Shown: positions 6,301 to 38,673 of the stretch, piece after piece
Position numbering within the stretch: the first letter of the stretch is position 1
Layout: the number at the start of each line of letters is the position of its first letter
Source of the DNA: Kayfunavirus LM33P1
Length of the DNA: 38,979 nt
Reading direction: 5' to 3' (one strand)
Sequence record: OZ035813.1
Notes under the pieces: generated by a model
Seen by the model: only the letters and a program-made list of their open reading frames with translations
The model's database searches: none
Told to the model about the DNA's origin: nothing
Made by a program: the position numbers and the translations under genes

Positions 6301-8982
6301 ATGAGCGTCATCTCTATTGACAAGCACGACTTCTCTGATGTGTCGAACGCCATTGAGCCGTTTAACCTACTGGCTGACCACTACGGGCAAGACATTGCAG
6401 TCAAACAGCTTCAGCTTGAGCACGAGGCATACACTGAAGGCGAGCGACGTTTCATCAAGAACCTTGAGAGACAGACTGAGCGAGGGGAACTGGCAGACAA
6501 TCAGGTCGCCAAGCCTTTGATGCAGACTCTGGTCCCTAAGATTGCGCAAGCCGTCAAGGAGTGGCATGAAGGTCCAGACGGGAAGCTGTCAACCTCTCGT
6601 CCGAGCGTAGCGTTCACCATGTTGAGCACTGAAGAGAAGGCCGTAAAGGTCCGCTCTTTGCGCATCTCCTGCGAGTCTGCTGCGGTTATCATATTGAAGG
6701 TCATACTCTCCAAGCTGGTCAAGCCTGAAGGGATACCGATTACACCGATGGCCTCAGCGATAGGTCGCACACTTGAGGACGAAATCCGCTTCGGTCGCAT
6801 CCGTGACAAGGAGAAAGAGCACTTCAAGAAGGCGATAGCTGATAACCTGAATAAGCGGGCCGGGGCGTCCTACAAGAAAGCCTACATGCAAGCGGTCGAG
6901 GCATCCATGCTGGAGCAAGGCCAACTGGAAGATGCGTGGGGGACTTGGAGTCCGACCGAGGCTGTCCACGTTGGAATCAAGATGCTGGAGATTGTCATCC
7001 AGTCCACACAACTGGTCGAGCTTAAGCGTTACGGTGCTGGCAATGCAGCGGCTGACGTTGAGATGGTCCACCTGTCAGACTTCTGGGTCAAGAAGATGGC
7101 ACAACGAGGATTCAGCCTTGCGGGTATAGCTCCAGTCTACCAGCCTTGCGTCGTTCCACCTAAGCCGTGGACTGGTGTCGTAGGCGGTGGGTACTGGGCC
7201 AAAGGACGCAGACCATTACCACTGATTCGCTTAGGGTCTAAGTCTGCGGTAGCACGCTACGAAGACGTGTATATGCCTGAAGTCTATGACGCTGTGAACA
7301 TCATTCAGAATACACCTTGGAAAGTGAACAAGAAGGTTCTGGAAGTGGTGAACATGGTCGAGAAGCTGAACAACACGCCTATTGATGACATCCCTCAGAT
7401 GGAACCGCTGAAGCCTGAGGACTATGCGGGTGAGACTGAAGAAGAACTCAAGGCATGGAAGAAGGCTGCTGCTGGTATCTATCGCCGCGAGAAGGCCAGA
7501 CAGTCACGAAGATTGTCACTGAGCTTTATCGTCAACCAAGCGAACAAGTTCTCTCAGTTCAAGGCCATCTGGTTCCCGTATAACATGGACTGGCGCGGTC
7601 GCGTCTACGCTGTGCCGATGTTCAACCCTCAGGGTAACGACATGCAAAAGGGTCTTCTGACTCTGGCAGTCGGTAAGCCTATTGGTGCTGATGGTTTCAA
7701 ATGGCTGAAGGTCCACGGTGCAAACTGCGCGGGTGTCGATAAAGTCACCTTCGAGGAGCGTATCAAGTGGGTGGAAGATAACCACGACAACATCATGGCT
7801 GCTGCCAAGGCACCGATGGATAGCATTGAGTGGTGGGGCAAGTTAGACTCTCCGTTCTGCTTCCTAGCGTTCTGCTTCGAGTATGCTGGCGTAATGCACC
7901 ACGGCTTGTCTTACTCCTGCTCGCTGCCGATAGCGTTCGATGGGTCCTGCTCTGGGATTCAGCACTTCAGCGCTATGCTTCGCGACCACATCGGTGGACA
8001 TGCAGTAAACCTGACGCCATCCGGTAAGGTCCAAGACATCTACCGCATCGTGTCTGACCGCATTGAGGAGGAGCTTAAAGTCCTACTGGTTAACGGTACG
8101 GACAACGAGATGGTAACTCACGAGGACAAGAAAACTGGTGAGATTACCGAGCGTCTCAAGCTGGGGACACGAGAGCTTGCCCGTCAGTGGCTGACCTACG
8201 GTATGTCACGAAAGGTCACTAAGCGTTCGGTCATGACTCTGGCCTACGGGTCGAAAGAGTACGGCTTCGCAGACCAAGTTTACGAGGACATCGTGATGCC
8301 AGCGATTGACTCAGGGTCTGGCGCTATGTTCACTGAACCAAGCCAAGCATCTCGCTTCATGGCTAAGATGATTTGGGAAGCTGTGAGTGTGACCGTAGTT
8401 GCTGCGGTTGACGCGATGAAATGGCTTCAGGGTGCTGCCAAGCTGCTTGCTGCTGAAGTGAAGGACAAGAAGACTGGAGAAATCCTGAAGCCTTGTCTTC
8501 CGGTACACTGGGTCACACCTGATGGTTTCCCTGTCTGGCAGGAATACCGCAAGAAGGACACCACTCGTCTGAACCTGATGTTCTTAGGGTCATTCAACCT
8601 TCAGCCTACCGTCAACAAAGGCACGAAGAAAGAGCTGGACAAGCACAAGCAGGAGTCAGGCATTAGCCCGAACTTCGTCCACTCACAAGATGGTAGCCAC
8701 CTCCGCAAGACTGTAGTCCACACGCACCGCAAATATGGCGTGATGTCATTCGCAGTGATTCACGATAGCTTCGGGACCATCCCGGCTGACGCTGAGTATC
8801 TGTTCCGTGGAGTCCGTGAGACGATGGTCGAGACCTACCGCGACAACGATGTGCTGCTTGACTTCTACGAGCAGTTTGAATACCAGCTTCACGAGAGCCA
8901 GAGAGACAAGTTGCCTGAGCTTCCGAAGAAAGGTAAACTGAATATCGAAGACATCTTGTCTTCAGACTTTGCATTCGCTTAA
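6301..8982 (+). CDS. T7-like single-subunit DNA-directed RNA polymerase (gp1)
   Basis: 893 aa; characteristic T7 RNAP sequence throughout (for example PMFNPQGNDMQKGLLTLA, HDSFGT, AFCFEYAGV, C-terminal FAFA). Confidence 0.97.
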   Translation: MSVISIDKHDFSDVSNAIEPFNLLADHYGQDIAVKQLQLEHEAYTEGERRFIKNLERQTERGELADNQVAKPLMQTLVPKIAQAVKEWHEGPDGKLSTSRPSVAFTMLSTEEKAVKVRSLRISCESAAVIILKVILSKLVKPEGIPITPMASAIGRTLEDEIRFGRIRDKEKEHFKKAIADNLNKRAGASYKKAYMQAVEASMLEQGQLEDAWGTWSPTEAVHVGIKMLEIVIQSTQLVELKRYGAGNAAADVEMVHLSDFWVKKMAQRGFSLAGIAPVYQPCVVPPKPWTGVVGGGYWAKGRRPLPLIRLGSKSAVARYEDVYMPEVYDAVNIIQNTPWKVNKKVLEVVNMVEKLNNTPIDDIPQMEPLKPEDYAGETEEELKAWKKAAAGIYRREKARQSRRLSLSFIVNQANKFSQFKAIWFPYNMDWRGRVYAVPMFNPQGNDMQKGLLTLAVGKPIGADGFKWLKVHGANCAGVDKVTFEERIKWVEDNHDNIMAAAKAPMDSIEWWGKLDSPFCFLAFCFEYAGVMHHGLSYSCSLPIAFDGSCSGIQHFSAMLRDHIGGHAVNLTPSGKVQDIYRIVSDRIEEELKVLLVNGTDNEMVTHEDKKTGEITERLKLGTRELARQWLTYGMSRKVTKRSVMTLAYGSKEYGFADQVYEDIVMPAIDSGSGAMFTEPSQASRFMAKMIWEAVSVTVVAAVDAMKWLQGAAKLLAAEVKDKKTGEILKPCLPVHWVTPDGFPVWQEYRKKDTTRLNLMFLGSFNLQPTVNKGTKKELDKHKQESGISPNFVHSQDGSHLRKTVVHTHRKYGVMSFAVIHDSFGTIPADAEYLFRGVRETMVETYRDNDVLLDFYEQFEYQLHESQRDKLPELPKKGKLNIEDILSSDFAFA

Positions 8983-25806: not shown

Positions 25807-25846
25807 AAACCCCTTGGGTGCCTTCGGGTGCTTGAGGGGTTTTTTT
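25807..25846 (+). terminator. T-phi-like terminator after the capsid gene
   Basis: 13-bp GC-rich stem CCCCTTGGGTGCC/GGGTGCTTGAGGGG with TTCG tetraloop followed by T7 run; resembles T7 Tphi. Confidence 0.85.
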
Positions 25847-36492: not shown

Positions 36493-38673
36493 ATGTCCAC
36501 GATTACACAATTCCCTTCAGGAAACACTCAGTACAGGATAGAGTTCGACTACCTAGCCAGAACGTTTGTTGTTGTTACGCTGGTGAATAGCTCTAACCCT
36601 ACCCTGAACCGTGTACTGGAAGTTGGTCGAGATTACCGATTCCTTAATCCAACGATGATTGAGATGTTGGCTGACCAATCAGGTTTCGACATCGTTCGTA
36701 TTCACCGTCAGACTGGAACTGACTTAGTGGTAGACTTCAGGAATGGCTCAGTGTTGACAGCTAGTGACCTGACCAATTCAGAGCTTCAGGCTATCCATAT
36801 TGCAGAAGAAGGTCGAGACCAAACGGTTGACTTAGCGAAGGAATATGCCGATGCTGCTGGTAGCTCTGCTGGCAACGCTAAGGATAGCGAGGACGAATCA
36901 CGCCGAATCGCTGCGAGTATCAAGGCAGCTGGTAAAATTGGCTATATTACCCGTCGCTCCTTCGAGAAAGGCTTCAACGTTACAACATGGAACGAGGTCC
37001 TGCTATGGGAAGAGGATGGTGATTATTACCGCTGGGATGGTACGCTTCCAAAGAACGTTCCCGCTGGTTCAACTCCTGAATCATCTGGTGGTATTGGGCT
37101 GAGTGCGTGGGTTAGTGTTGGTGATGCGTCACTTAGAGCAAACCTGGCTGATAGTGATGGCGCTAAATACATAGGCAGTGGAGAAAGGACATTACTTGAG
37201 CACAACAATGATGTTTTGCACTCAAAAGACTTTCCAACACTGCAGGCAGCTATAGATGCATCTTTGCAAAAAAATGATCTACTGGTGTCTCCTGGCAATT
37301 ATACTGAAAAAGTTACTATTGGAAACGCGCAGTTAAAAGGTGTTGGCGGGGCCACGGTACTAAAAACTCCGGCAGACTTTACAAACACTGTTCAGGTTAA
37401 TTTAGCTACACCTCATTGGCAATTCCGCCATAGTGGTGGTTTTGCTATAGATGGTTCCGGGACAACCGGGGCCGTAGGTATTAGTTTTGACCCGTCAGAC
37501 CAATATTCCGGACGTCATAATTTTAGTGATGTATACATCCACAACATCAACAAGGCCATTCAGAAGCCTTCCGGGAACATCGGCAATACTTGGAGAAATA
37601 TTGGGATATCTACGTGTGATTGGGGGTATTACGCGATTAGTGGCTCAGAGATGCATTGCGGGGCCGATACCCTCTACAATATCCACTTCGATGGCATCTC
37701 CACCTATGCAGTCTATCTAGACGGCACTGTCGATAATGGCGGGGGGGGCGCATGGTGGCTTAAAGACTCCATTATTGAGGCTTCCGGAGGTGGCGGGATA
37801 TACTTAAAAAGTAAATCGGGCGACTGTCCTACATCTCCATGCGGGGTATCCAATATATGGATGGAAGCGATCGCAACATCACCGGCTGTTCAGGTAGACG
37901 GCGTGGCGCAAAAACCGCGAGTTCTCAAGTTGGTAGACACAGCGATATTCTTTGCTGAGTATTCTTATCTCAACAACATCGAGCTATCCAACTCCAACTT
38001 AGTAACTTATGGTTGCCGTTTTGACAACGCTGATGGCAATCAGGATATTGTCGTGGATGCACAAAGTACCATTGTAGCCCATGACGTGTATTTAAACGGC
38101 AGTTCTGGAAAGGACGTTATTGTGGAGTCCGTAGCATCGCAATCTGCAACGATAGCTGCCACAAACTTATCTCTGAGGGGCAACTTAACAAGAGGGAGAG
38201 TATTTAATACGCCGACAGGGAATAAATTAATGGCTATCACATTTGACTCAGGTAGCCATAATTTTTCTGGCAGCGGCACCGTTAACGGTTCGACTGTATC
38301 TGACGGACTTCACGCCGCTACATGTACCGAATTTTCATTCCCCGGAGCCGGTTTATATGAAATGGTAGCGACAAGAACAACCATTACATCCGGTAGATGG
38401 TACGTGTGGGGAGTTAACTCACGCCTACAATCTGGCTCGGCGGATATTAGTATAACGTCAGGTATTACCATGGGTAGTGTTTACACAAAGCCGGGGGAGT
38501 GGATTAGCACTTTCGGTGTAGGAAAGGCATCTACCACTGGCACTGTAGCGCTATACGTTTCCACAGGAGGAGGTTCGGGAGCTACGGTCAGATTCAGTGA
38601 CTTTTTCATCGCTGAGTTTACGACGCAAGCTCAGGCTTTAGCTTTCGCCAATTCAAGGATGTCGTTATCATAA
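36493..38673 (+). CDS. tail fiber / tailspike (gp17): T7-like N-terminal adaptor fused to beta-helix-like C-terminal domain
   Basis: 726 aa; N-terminus (EFDYLARTFVVVTL, DYRF, DFRNGSVLTASDL, IHIAEEGRDQTVD) matches the T7 gp17 N-terminal domain; remainder is rich in G/N/S/T repeats typical of parallel beta-helix tailspikes and has a different base composition. Confidence 0.9.
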   Translation: MSTITQFPSGNTQYRIEFDYLARTFVVVTLVNSSNPTLNRVLEVGRDYRFLNPTMIEMLADQSGFDIVRIHRQTGTDLVVDFRNGSVLTASDLTNSELQAIHIAEEGRDQTVDLAKEYADAAGSSAGNAKDSEDESRRIAASIKAAGKIGYITRRSFEKGFNVTTWNEVLLWEEDGDYYRWDGTLPKNVPAGSTPESSGGIGLSAWVSVGDASLRANLADSDGAKYIGSGERTLLEHNNDVLHSKDFPTLQAAIDASLQKNDLLVSPGNYTEKVTIGNAQLKGVGGATVLKTPADFTNTVQVNLATPHWQFRHSGGFAIDGSGTTGAVGISFDPSDQYSGRHNFSDVYIHNINKAIQKPSGNIGNTWRNIGISTCDWGYYAISGSEMHCGADTLYNIHFDGISTYAVYLDGTVDNGGGGAWWLKDSIIEASGGGGIYLKSKSGDCPTSPCGVSNIWMEAIATSPAVQVDGVAQKPRVLKLVDTAIFFAEYSYLNNIELSNSNLVTYGCRFDNADGNQDIVVDAQSTIVAHDVYLNGSSGKDVIVESVASQSATIAATNLSLRGNLTRGRVFNTPTGNKLMAITFDSGSHNFSGSGTVNGSTVSDGLHAATCTEFSFPGAGLYEMVATRTTITSGRWYVWGVNSRLQSGSADISITSGITMGSVYTKPGEWISTFGVGKASTTGTVALYVSTGGGSGATVRFSDFFIAEFTTQAQALAFANSRMSLS

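Follow-up and report, generated by a model that had tools for sequence, protein, structure and literature searches.

Tailspike gene and module organization

The window, that is the whole stretch of 38,979 nucleotides analysed here, is the genome of the Escherichia phage LM33_P1 (Kayfunavirus) in rotated form. Its gene gp17 (36493..38673, on the plus strand as are all features described below) codes for a tail fibre or tailspike of 726 aa and is the only receptor-binding protein (RBP) gene annotated in the genome; the host is, according to the literature, an ST131-O25b:H4 strain. The N-terminal adaptor (36493..37140, with an approximate end) comprises the Pfam domains Phage_T7_tail (aa 10–115) and Tail_spike_N (aa 151–211). 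Up to about gene nucleotide 647 the sequence matches the tail fibres of K1F-like Kayfunavirus members, the distal domains of which differ, at 95–98%, nucleotides 677–2174 match the tailspikes of Kagunavirus siphophages at 87–89%, and the junction between adaptor and receptor-binding domain (RBD) is located approximately near nucleotides 647–677. With a Kayfunavirus-like 5′ part and a Kagunavirus-like 3′ part, the gene has the mosaic origin implied by the first-pass annotation, which had spoken of an acquired receptor-binding domain. Among the protein relatives three types of N-terminal adaptor are found, namely T7 tail, Tail_spike_N only and P22 head-binding. A megablast search with the RBD against complete E. 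coli genomes and PLSDB plasmids returned no match.

The receptor-binding/depolymerase module (aa 226–726, 37168..38670) is predicted by AF2 to form a right-handed β-helix followed by a C-terminal β-sandwich (pLDDT 92.4). A sequence search for solved structures of the domain returned none beyond the N-terminal adaptor, and the best structural matches in Foldseek are the tailspikes CBA120 TSP4 (5w6h), K2-2 TSP (8iq5), Sf6 (2vbm/4urr) and P22 (1qrb), all with probability 1.0. By fold and phage adaptor (AF2, Foldseek, Pfam) the protein resembles the β-helix tailspike depolymerases, with which it shares the right-handed parallel β-helix, the C-terminal domain and the modular N-terminal adaptors. 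However, sequence identity to these proteins is only 10–14%, TM-scores are 0.3–0.46 and the catalytic residues of LM33_P1 are candidates only.

In the AF2 model, residues G416–G419 (model residues 191–194) are located in a loop between strands 180–185 and 196–206. The strand right after this loop (37765..37779) harbors D425 and E429, which are nearly invariant among the homologues. Together with the invariant E458, these residues are putative catalytic carboxylates for cleavage of the O25b O-antigen, proposed from their conservation and from the carboxylate spacing of the P22, Sf6 and HK620 tailspikes.

The G8 tract

G416–G419 of the loop are encoded by the four glycine codons GGC GGG GGG GGC (37738..37749), which form a 12-nt core and contain a run of eight G residues at 37741..37748 (GGGGGGGG, C8 on the minus strand) with a C on either side. 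The run encodes G417, G418 and part of G419, and the surrounding peptide, the VDNGGGGAWW region, reads in frame TVDNGGGGAWWLKD. The run, its exact position and the peptide DNGGGGAWW, all reported by the first-pass annotation, agree with the letters of the window and with the codons of the open reading frame 36493..38673.

G8 is the longest homopolymer of the window, followed by A7 at 37268 and T7 at 25840, and only five runs of at least 6 nt are present altogether. Long runs are depleted in the LM33_P1 genome: four G6/C6 windows are found where 13.5 are expected, and three of these four lie inside the G8 tract itself. On the other hand, at least one G8/C8 occurs in 44 of 100 dinucleotide-preserving shuffles (mean 0.83). 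As the genome avoids long runs, G8 is thus an outlier with respect to the run-length distribution of its own genome, but not with respect to base composition. A 2025 preprint (PMC12633550) reports that runs of at least 6 nt are under-represented in phage tail-fibre genes, that T7-like genera have the fewest and that Kayfunavirus is among the poorest genera.

Tract length and alleles in related loci

The length of the 12-nt core is identical in all 31 related loci. G8 itself is present in ten distinct assemblies, every copy being exactly 8 nt long despite backgrounds that differ by 4–37 nt elsewhere in the gene, and is the majority allele among podovirus copies (10/14). In the other 21 of the 31 loci the run is interrupted by a substitution (GGG-GTG, GTT, TGT or ATA) in codon 418 (37744..37746). 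This codon is GGG (Gly) in LM33_P1 and nine other assemblies. Valine is encoded by GTG in HC12 and the Val-type siphophages and by GTT in HC13 and 6925, while Emlis has TGT (Cys) and SHAK9454, like most Kagunavirus copies, has ATA (Ile).

Each of the 20 genes that were annotated or extracted has an uninterrupted reading frame of full length, and the members of the protein cluster are either 726 aa long or partials ended by a contig boundary. Length variants of the tract are absent from the 31 loci, the cluster members and the cluster representatives; the comparison is drawn from consensus assemblies, in which minority variants at or below the percent level are invisible. A protein-database search with the 437-aa product of a G7 variant returned no representative of about 423 or 437 aa, only P0001 (726 aa) covering the query; this negative result is weak because the database lists cluster representatives only. 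A 212-aa query from the G7 product yielded three short proteins and missed known full-length relatives, so that this search is unreliable. Finally, the gapped pattern GTCGATAAYGGN{6,14}GCATGGTGGCTTAAAGA, which covers G4–G12, had no match in IMG/VR viral and JGI metagenome contigs. Both collections appear to lack this lineage altogether, and the result is therefore uninformative with respect to length variation.

The first-pass annotation had also considered G8 a spot that may be prone to sequencing error. Homopolymers are classic error sites, and the record LT594300.1 has a local artefact of 19 nt at another place, namely within the RNA polymerase gene, from which the window is free. However, the reading frame is full length and collinear with its relatives to the last residue, and ten distinct assemblies, which stem from different laboratories and sequencing runs, show the same G8. 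Since an intact frame and ten independent assemblies argue together, a base-calling or assembly artefact, with a true length or sequence other than the recorded one, can practically be dismissed.

The glycine loop in the tailspike family

In the tailspike family the glycine-rich loop in the β-helix follows the pattern GG-[I/V]-GG-WW-L-K-D-S-I-I-E. Of 58 homologues, 52 have Ile or Val at position 418 (I44/V8/F2/L1/G3), and G419 and A420 adjoin the conserved W421 and W422. Where the family as a whole has an aliphatic residue, a glycine is unusual and may have a function of its own.

A second GGGG motif, G432–G435 (37786..37797), of which G433–435 are invariant in the 58 homologues, serves as an internal control. 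It is an old Gly4 motif and is encoded by GGA GGY GGC GGG in 31 of 31 loci, without a long run. Likewise, distant homologues with three or four glycines in the loop of the first motif use mixed codons and have no run.

Both motifs lie in predicted RNA structures. The ViennaRNA G-quadruplex model places GG.GG.GG.GG quadruplexes over the run and over the second GGGG motif, with -53.6 kcal/mol compared to -33.3 kcal/mol without the quadruplex term, and for the GTG allele the first of them is no longer predicted. The run might act on the transcript and tune the yield of gp17, through a two-tier G-quadruplex, a pause at an internal Shine-Dalgarno-like site or slippage of the RNA polymerase. However, any Gly4 stretch written as GGN x4 gives a quadruplex prediction, two-tier quadruplexes are marginal, the feature is missing from most relatives and no slippery heptamer follows downstream (TGG CTT AAA GAC), which renders such a role exceedingly improbable. 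A programmed ribosomal frameshift was rejected, as an X XXY YYZ heptamer is absent 3′ of the run.

Substitution history of codon 418

Codon 418 is the most-changed codon of the 727 in the gene, with four parsimony steps, all of them between G and T, among 12 genes of about 99% identity (λ = 0.10 per codon, Poisson P = 4e-6, corrected for 727 codons ~0.003); seven steps result once two outliers are added. Three amino-acid states occur at this position in near-identical genes. In Emlis, two of the six differences from the LM33_P1 gene fall in codon 418, while the genomes differ by about 3–5% overall. The Emlis TGT allele is known from a single unreplicated assembly and might be a systematic G-run error; genome-wide, only one other G-to-T change in a run of at least 5 nt is found against LM33_P1, among some 1600 ordinary substitutions.

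When rooted with SHAK9454, the ~99% clade has GGG as its basal state under parsimony, followed by four G-to-T steps inside the run; the rooting is weak, and recombination is evident in the gene set (ERR13731096 block). Possibly, GTG was repeatedly changed to GGG, or else the run had a single origin and was then lost by G-to-T reversal or erosion. Import of the GTG codon of the HC clade from a Val-type siphophage by recombination is unlikely, because the flanking diagnostic sites within 30 nt (AAT vs AAC, GAC vs AAC) remain of the podovirus type.

These changes could indicate diversifying or positive selection on residue 418, with the loop lining the O-antigen binding or cleavage groove, the run being the nucleotide shadow of a selected glycine, and Val and Cys representing alternative adaptive states. 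The significant excess of steps, the three amino-acid states, the Emlis differences and the position of the loop directly in front of D425 and E429 point in this direction. Contrary to this expectation, one step out of the four, from GTG to GTT, leaves the amino acid unchanged, and the family-wide pattern at 418 is one of conservation (I/V) and not of diversity. Furthermore, the Gly-type podophage 22664BS1 and the Ile-type siphophage 22664BS2 apparently stem from the same host strain, as judged by their names only, so that residue 418 is no obvious determinant of host range. Such selection is conceivable, yet on balance doubtful.

A run that is broken repeatedly could also be a liability under erosion, with G8 being removed by selection against frameshift load or by a G-run-specific G-to-T mutagenesis (GTG and then GTT in the HC clade, TGT in Emlis). 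With SHAK9454 as outgroup, GGG is indeed basal and all four later steps are G-to-T changes in the run, the synonymous step from GTG to GTT shortens the remaining run further, and runs are avoided both in the old GGGG motif and by distant homologues. Nevertheless, G8 is kept in 10 of 14 copies, the rooting is weak in a recombining gene set and the Emlis allele is unreplicated. In addition, GTG is the sole codon by which an aliphatic residue can be regained in a single step, and selection on the protein would therefore explain the same change. Erosion of the run is considered unlikely.

Predicted slippage products and comparison with contingency loci

The first-pass annotation had proposed that slipped-strand mispairing at G8 might switch the tailspike on and off and thereby cause host-range heterogeneity. 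With eight residues the run exceeds the length of about 7 from which G/C tracts are regarded as long enough to slip, and it is plausibly slippage-prone. Loss of one G (G7, -1) leads to a product of 437 aa and gain of one G (G9, +1) to a product of 423 aa, both of which lack the rest of the β-helix and the C-terminal β-sandwich (aa ~420–726) and, judged from the model, would presumably be non-functional.

A true contingency locus would use reversible ±1 slippage to generate, as a form of bet-hedging, a heritable subpopulation that adsorbs differently or has another host range. The closest phage precedent is found in Campylobacter Fletchervirus, where hypermutable polyG tracts of 7–11 nt in RBP genes are reported to create diversity, by which a subpopulation can still infect cells that have the receptor switched off (Sorensen et al. 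2021, Cell Rep 35:109214, as cited in PMC10877375 and PMC12633550). As in Fletchervirus according to these citing works, the G homopolymer of LM33_P1 lies within a host-recognition gene, and its eight residues fall inside the range of 7–11; no other run of this run-poor genome is as long. The tract also exceeds the threshold of at least 6 nt within an ORF that is applied to putative contingency loci of T2, T4, T6, T7 and other phages, where the phage polymerase is presumed to slip (Gomez, Barrick and Waters 2025, PMC12633550). The same preprint gives indel frequencies of ~3e-4 at such runs in several phages, including read-level indels at the only run of this kind in T7.

Unlike Fletchervirus, LM33_P1 has a single tract, which is not conserved among relatives, is constant in 31 loci and lies in the only tail-fibre gene; a second RBP for the OFF variant is absent from the annotation. 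The OFF state is a truncation that removes the C-terminal 40% of the only RBP, and an alternative route to a receptor is thus not apparent. The validated loci T2 agt and T4 rIIA are non-essential genes, the loss of which is advantageous against a defence system and the reversion of which was measured (PMC12633550), whereas gp17 of LM33_P1 is essential for infection.

The run shares its repeat type, polyG/polyC, and the chemistry of slipped-strand mispairing with the contingency loci in surface-structure genes of Campylobacter, Neisseria and Haemophilus. In these bacterial tracts the position is conserved, the length is variable among strains as well as inside a strain, and either phase is viable. 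In the consensus assemblies G8 shows none of these properties: all 31 loci agree in core length, 21 of them have an interrupted run, distant homologues use mixed glycine codons, and only one of the two phases encodes a full-length tailspike.

Since none of the related genomes found departs from the common core length, since two thirds of the relatives lack the tract and since its OFF state truncates the sole RBP, the data do not support on/off switching and the host-range heterogeneity expected from it. The probable origin of the tract by a missense change at a conserved residue and the scarcity of runs of at least 6 nt in tail fibres (PMC12633550) argue in the same direction. A true contingency locus is accordingly very unlikely.

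A bolder version would regard G8 as a working hypermutable site of a T7-like therapeutic phage. Each burst (~317 particles) would then seed tailspike-frameshift genomes, which are carried in phenotypically wild-type virions and revert frequently, and the unusual G/T changes at codon 418 would reflect recurrent selection that creates and destroys the tract. If true, this would mean that a gene for host recognition has evolvable mutability in a genus from which repeats have otherwise been purged; we regard it as highly improbable.

Origin and consequences of the run

Most probably, G8 is an incidental and evolutionarily young by-product of protein evolution and not a device. The run is one base away from GGG-GTG-GGC (V418G), an allele present in HC12 and the Val-type siphophages. 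In the lineage of LM33_P1, a change of the middle, aliphatic codon to GGG would have fused G4 and G3 into G8. The run thus exists only because glycine is tolerated or favoured at position 418 and the neighbouring glycine codons happen to be GGG and GGC.

Once formed, the run would be expected to slip under the phage's own T7-type DNA polymerase at a rate of roughly 1e-4 to 1e-3 per copy. Slipped genomes would encode a gp17 of 423 or 437 aa that lacks about 40% of the protein, would be packaged with wild-type spikes made in the same cell and would become dead ends at the next single infection. It is proposed that the run, by giving rise to such dead-end genomes, constitutes a small mutational load and no switch. 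Its disruption by substitution in two sub-lineages would fit either a liability or selection on the residue. Any cost can only be small, for most podovirus copies carry G8 and it has been retained on diverged backgrounds.

As it stands G8 matters little, being one more ordinary coding homopolymer in a phage genome that has been published, and comparison gives no sign of a function. LM33_P1 has, however, been studied as a therapeutic phage against ST131. Frameshift variants at a low level, and homopolymer miscalls in long-read quality control, are to be expected at a G8 in its sole gene for receptor binding, which is hence worth knowing when lots are sequenced. Beyond the run, the hotspot at residue 418 marks a loop beside conserved acidic residues, and this residue may offer a cheap target for finding out what tunes activity or specificity in a widely exchanged, putative O-antigen tailspike module.

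Genomic context of the G8 run

The LM33_P1 genome (Escherichia phage; Kayfunavirus, Autographiviridae; 38,979 bp, rotated by 3,376 bases relative to LT594300.1) harbors on its plus strand a run of eight G residues at 37741-37748 with C on either flank. As the first-pass annotation had observed, the run is coding. It lies in frame within ORF 36493..38673 (+), encoding the 726-residue tail fibre/tailspike gp17, where the codons GGC GGG GGG GGC specify G416-G419 inside the peptide ...TVDNGGGGAWWLKD...; on the opposite strand, an ORF scan found no ORF of at least 50 aa overlapping it.

The genome has five homopolymers of at least six bases (G8, A7, T7, A6 and G6), of which G8 is the longest. On base composition alone it is unremarkable, G8 or C8 being found in 44 of 100 dinucleotide-preserving shuffles. 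The genome is poor in long G/C runs, with four G6/C6 windows versus 13.5 expected, three of the four within the G8 tract. The A7 run (37268-37274; CAA AAA AAT, Q259 K260 N261) is also located in the tailspike gene, so that the acquired module contains two of the genome's three longest runs; the length of A7 is constant across 14/14 podovirus copies, and Golestan reads CAG AAA AAT. The T7 run (25840-25846) is intergenic, with the small ORF that follows the capsid gene on one side and tail tubular protein A on the other. In phage Emlis it is T6, the sole homopolymer length difference observed between relatives.

Relative to LT594300.1 the sole difference is at 8267-8285 (12 mismatches), within the RNA polymerase gene (ORF 6301-8982). 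There, LT594300.1 carries a local repeat of GAGGACATCGTGATGCCAG leading to a TGA, which splits the T7-type RNA polymerase into two annotated CDSs (GP7/GP8), while the ORF in the window is intact (893 aa). The repeat appears to have arisen from a local error in the assembly of LT594300.1.

Architecture of the tailspike

The N-terminal part of gp17 contains the Pfam domains Phage_T7_tail (aa 10-115) and Tail_spike_N (aa 151-211), and solved-structure matches from sequence search are confined to the first ~230 residues. At the DNA level, gene nt 1-~647 share 95-98% identity with many tail-fibre genes of Kayfunavirus that have unrelated distal parts, and nt 677-2174 share 87-89% identity with Kagunavirus siphophage tailspike genes, e.g. 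those of Golestan, phiEc3/4 and 22664BS2. A protein search with aa 226-726 retrieved 58 relatives with identities down to 35%, joined to N-termini of T7 type, siphophage type or P22 head-binding type. This mosaic DNA identity and the variety of N-termini bear out the earlier designation of the region as an acquired receptor-binding domain.

From the alignment of the 58 relatives, AlphaFold2 gave a confident model of aa 226-726 (pLDDT 92.4, pTM 0.88), in which a long beta-helix leads into a C-terminal beta-sandwich. The top Foldseek matches are phage tailspike depolymerases, among them CBA120 TSP4, Klebsiella K2-2 TSP, Sf6 and P22; the C-terminal part also matched carbohydrate-binding modules. 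G416-G419 (model residues 191-194) are predicted to lie in the loop that connects strands 180-185 and 196-206. On the strand directly following this loop are D425 and E429, both nearly invariant; E458 is invariant. These three might be catalytic residues because their roughly one-rung spacing (29-33 residues) resembles that of the catalytic carboxylates in the tailspikes of P22, Sf6 and HK620.

Constancy of the tract length

The region was taken from every phage record containing it and from contigs encoding cluster members, giving 31 loci from about 27 distinct sources. The 12-nt core (37738-37749 in LM33_P1) between GAYAAY and GSNTGGTGG has equal length in 31/31 loci, and no length polymorphism is found at the tract among these consensus sequences. 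Codons 417-418 read GGG-GGG (G8, Gly418) in ten assemblies, namely LM33_P1, 22664BS1, 101136BS1, 101118UKE1, LNA5, four SRA-run assemblies and one E. coli TPA contig. They read GGG-GTG (Val) in HC12 and six Val-type siphophage loci, GGG-GTT (Val) in HC13 and 6925, GGG-TGT (Cys) in Emlis, and GGG-ATA (Ile) in podophage SHAK9454 and ten Kagunavirus records.

Elsewhere in the gene, the G8 assemblies differ pairwise by 4-37 nt and are therefore not copies of one record. With the frame intact and the same G8 in all ten, the suggestion of a sequencing error is refuted. All translated genes (20/20) are intact and full length, and cluster members have 726 aa or are fragments ended by a contig edge. 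With the hypothetical G7 product as protein query, no 423- or 437-aa protein appeared among the cluster representatives searched. A shorter 212-aa query was discounted, as it gave only 259-273-aa proteins and missed the known 661-726-aa relatives; such a search may partly select by length.

Two of the records used have irregular annotation. SHAK9454 (OR594184.1, UNVERIFIED) bears terminase and spanin labels over tailspike sequence, and its features seem to be shifted relative to the sequence. SHAK7858 (OR594183.1) is a 44.5-kb Kagunavirus-like genome under Kayfunavirus taxonomy with the name 'EcoM'.

Origin of the run

Over the 58 homologues the loop consensus is GG-[I/V]-GG-WW-LKDSIIE, with Ile (44), Val (8), Phe (2), Leu (1) or Gly (3) at position 418. 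The LM33-type GGG codon (37744-37746) differs by a single base from GTG, the codon in HC12 and in the Val-type siphophages, which share A420 with the LM33 clade. A V418G change (GTG vs GGG) would join G4 and G3 into G8, and the run would thus exist because of a missense change at an otherwise aliphatic position.

Lineages in which three or four glycines occur independently at this loop use mixed codons: GGC GGT GGA in IMEP24, GGA GGG GGT GGT and GGC GGC GGC in two further homologues (P0056 and P0057). The second, invariant GGGG motif one turn after the loop (G432-G435, 37786-37797) reads GGA GGY GGC GGG in 31/31 loci. Nothing in these sequences suggests maintenance of a run at this loop. Very likely, G8 arose recently and incidentally, as a by-product of V418G in a glycine-rich loop of a tailspike module that is shared horizontally.

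These Gly-rich tailspike genes commonly contain G-runs of 5-7; the IMEP24 tail fibre gene (MZ648215.1; a Kayfunavirus tailspike, 56% aa identity overall) has its own G7 and G6 at other positions (gene nt 1594). For the mRNA, the ViennaRNA quadruplex model predicts a two-tier G-quadruplex over each of the two GGGG motifs (37738-37749 and 37786-37797), which is probably what GGN x4 coding gives in general.

Substitutions at codon 418

Among 12 podovirus genes of ~99% identity, codon 418 takes four parsimony steps and every other codon at most two (expectation 0.10 steps per codon; Poisson P 4e-6, 0.003 corrected for 727 codons). Once SHAK9454 and the recombinant ERR13731096 are added, the count is seven. 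The Emlis gene differs from that of LM33_P1 at 6/2,181 positions, two of them in codon 418. Elsewhere the two phages share 92-97% identity in most aligned genome blocks; the 99.7% identity of the tailspike gene (36493-38673) to Emlis (OX460933.1) points to a host-recognition module that was recently exchanged, or is strongly conserved, among Kayfunaviruses. Otherwise LM33-like, the ERR13731096 gene has about 25 substitutions in one block at nt ~1545-1729, all shared with SHAK9454, a pattern indicating recombination within the receptor-binding domain.

Within the clade all codon 418 changes are G/T. Rooting with SHAK9454, with few sites behind it and recombination evident, puts GGG at the root of this ~99% clade; the Val (HC clade) and Cys (Emlis) alleles would then be later G-to-T changes breaking the run, one of them synonymous. 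The opposite history, ancestral GTG with repeated T-to-G changes, is possible and would plausibly be favoured by transient-misalignment mutagenesis, a general mechanism at interrupted runs. Of three candidate causes of the hotspot, selection on residue 418 is the likeliest, ahead of selection against the run and local mutational bias.

Consequences of slippage and known systems

Slippage at G8 is plausible. It would yield products of 437 aa (G7) or 423 aa (G9), each with a short out-of-frame tail and, according to the model, devoid of the remaining beta-helix and the entire beta-sandwich. The deposited annotation shows one tail-fibre gene only, so a frameshifted (OFF) genome would have no other receptor-binding protein. 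Such genomes would not propagate beyond a single round of phenotypic mixing, and frameshifts would represent load rather than phase.

In several phages the mean indel frequency at runs of at least six is about 3e-4, and indels were detected in T7's only such run; these runs are under-represented in tail fibres and least frequent in T7-like genera, Kayfunavirus among them (PMC12633550, 2025 preprint). At those rates and with a burst size of 317 for LM33_P1 (PMC5434335), one frameshift genome would arise in only a fraction of bursts.

Functionally, the closest analogues are the polyG tracts in receptor-binding protein genes of Campylobacter Fletchervirus (Sorensen 2021, as cited in PMC10877375 and PMC12633550) and the contingency loci, based on runs, that have been proposed for T-even phages (PMC12633550). 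G8 shares with both the repeat type and the presumed chemistry but differs from them in its constant length (31/31 loci), its lack of positional conservation and the apparent want of a viable OFF state. The proposed on/off switching is accordingly unsupported by these comparisons, and G8 is not classed as a contingency locus on them; under the permissive definition of PMC12633550 it is a 'putative' one, as is any run of at least six.

The remaining interest is modest and lies in the codon 418 hotspot and in a practical point, namely that the longest homopolymer of this therapeutic-candidate phage lies in its sole receptor-binding gene.
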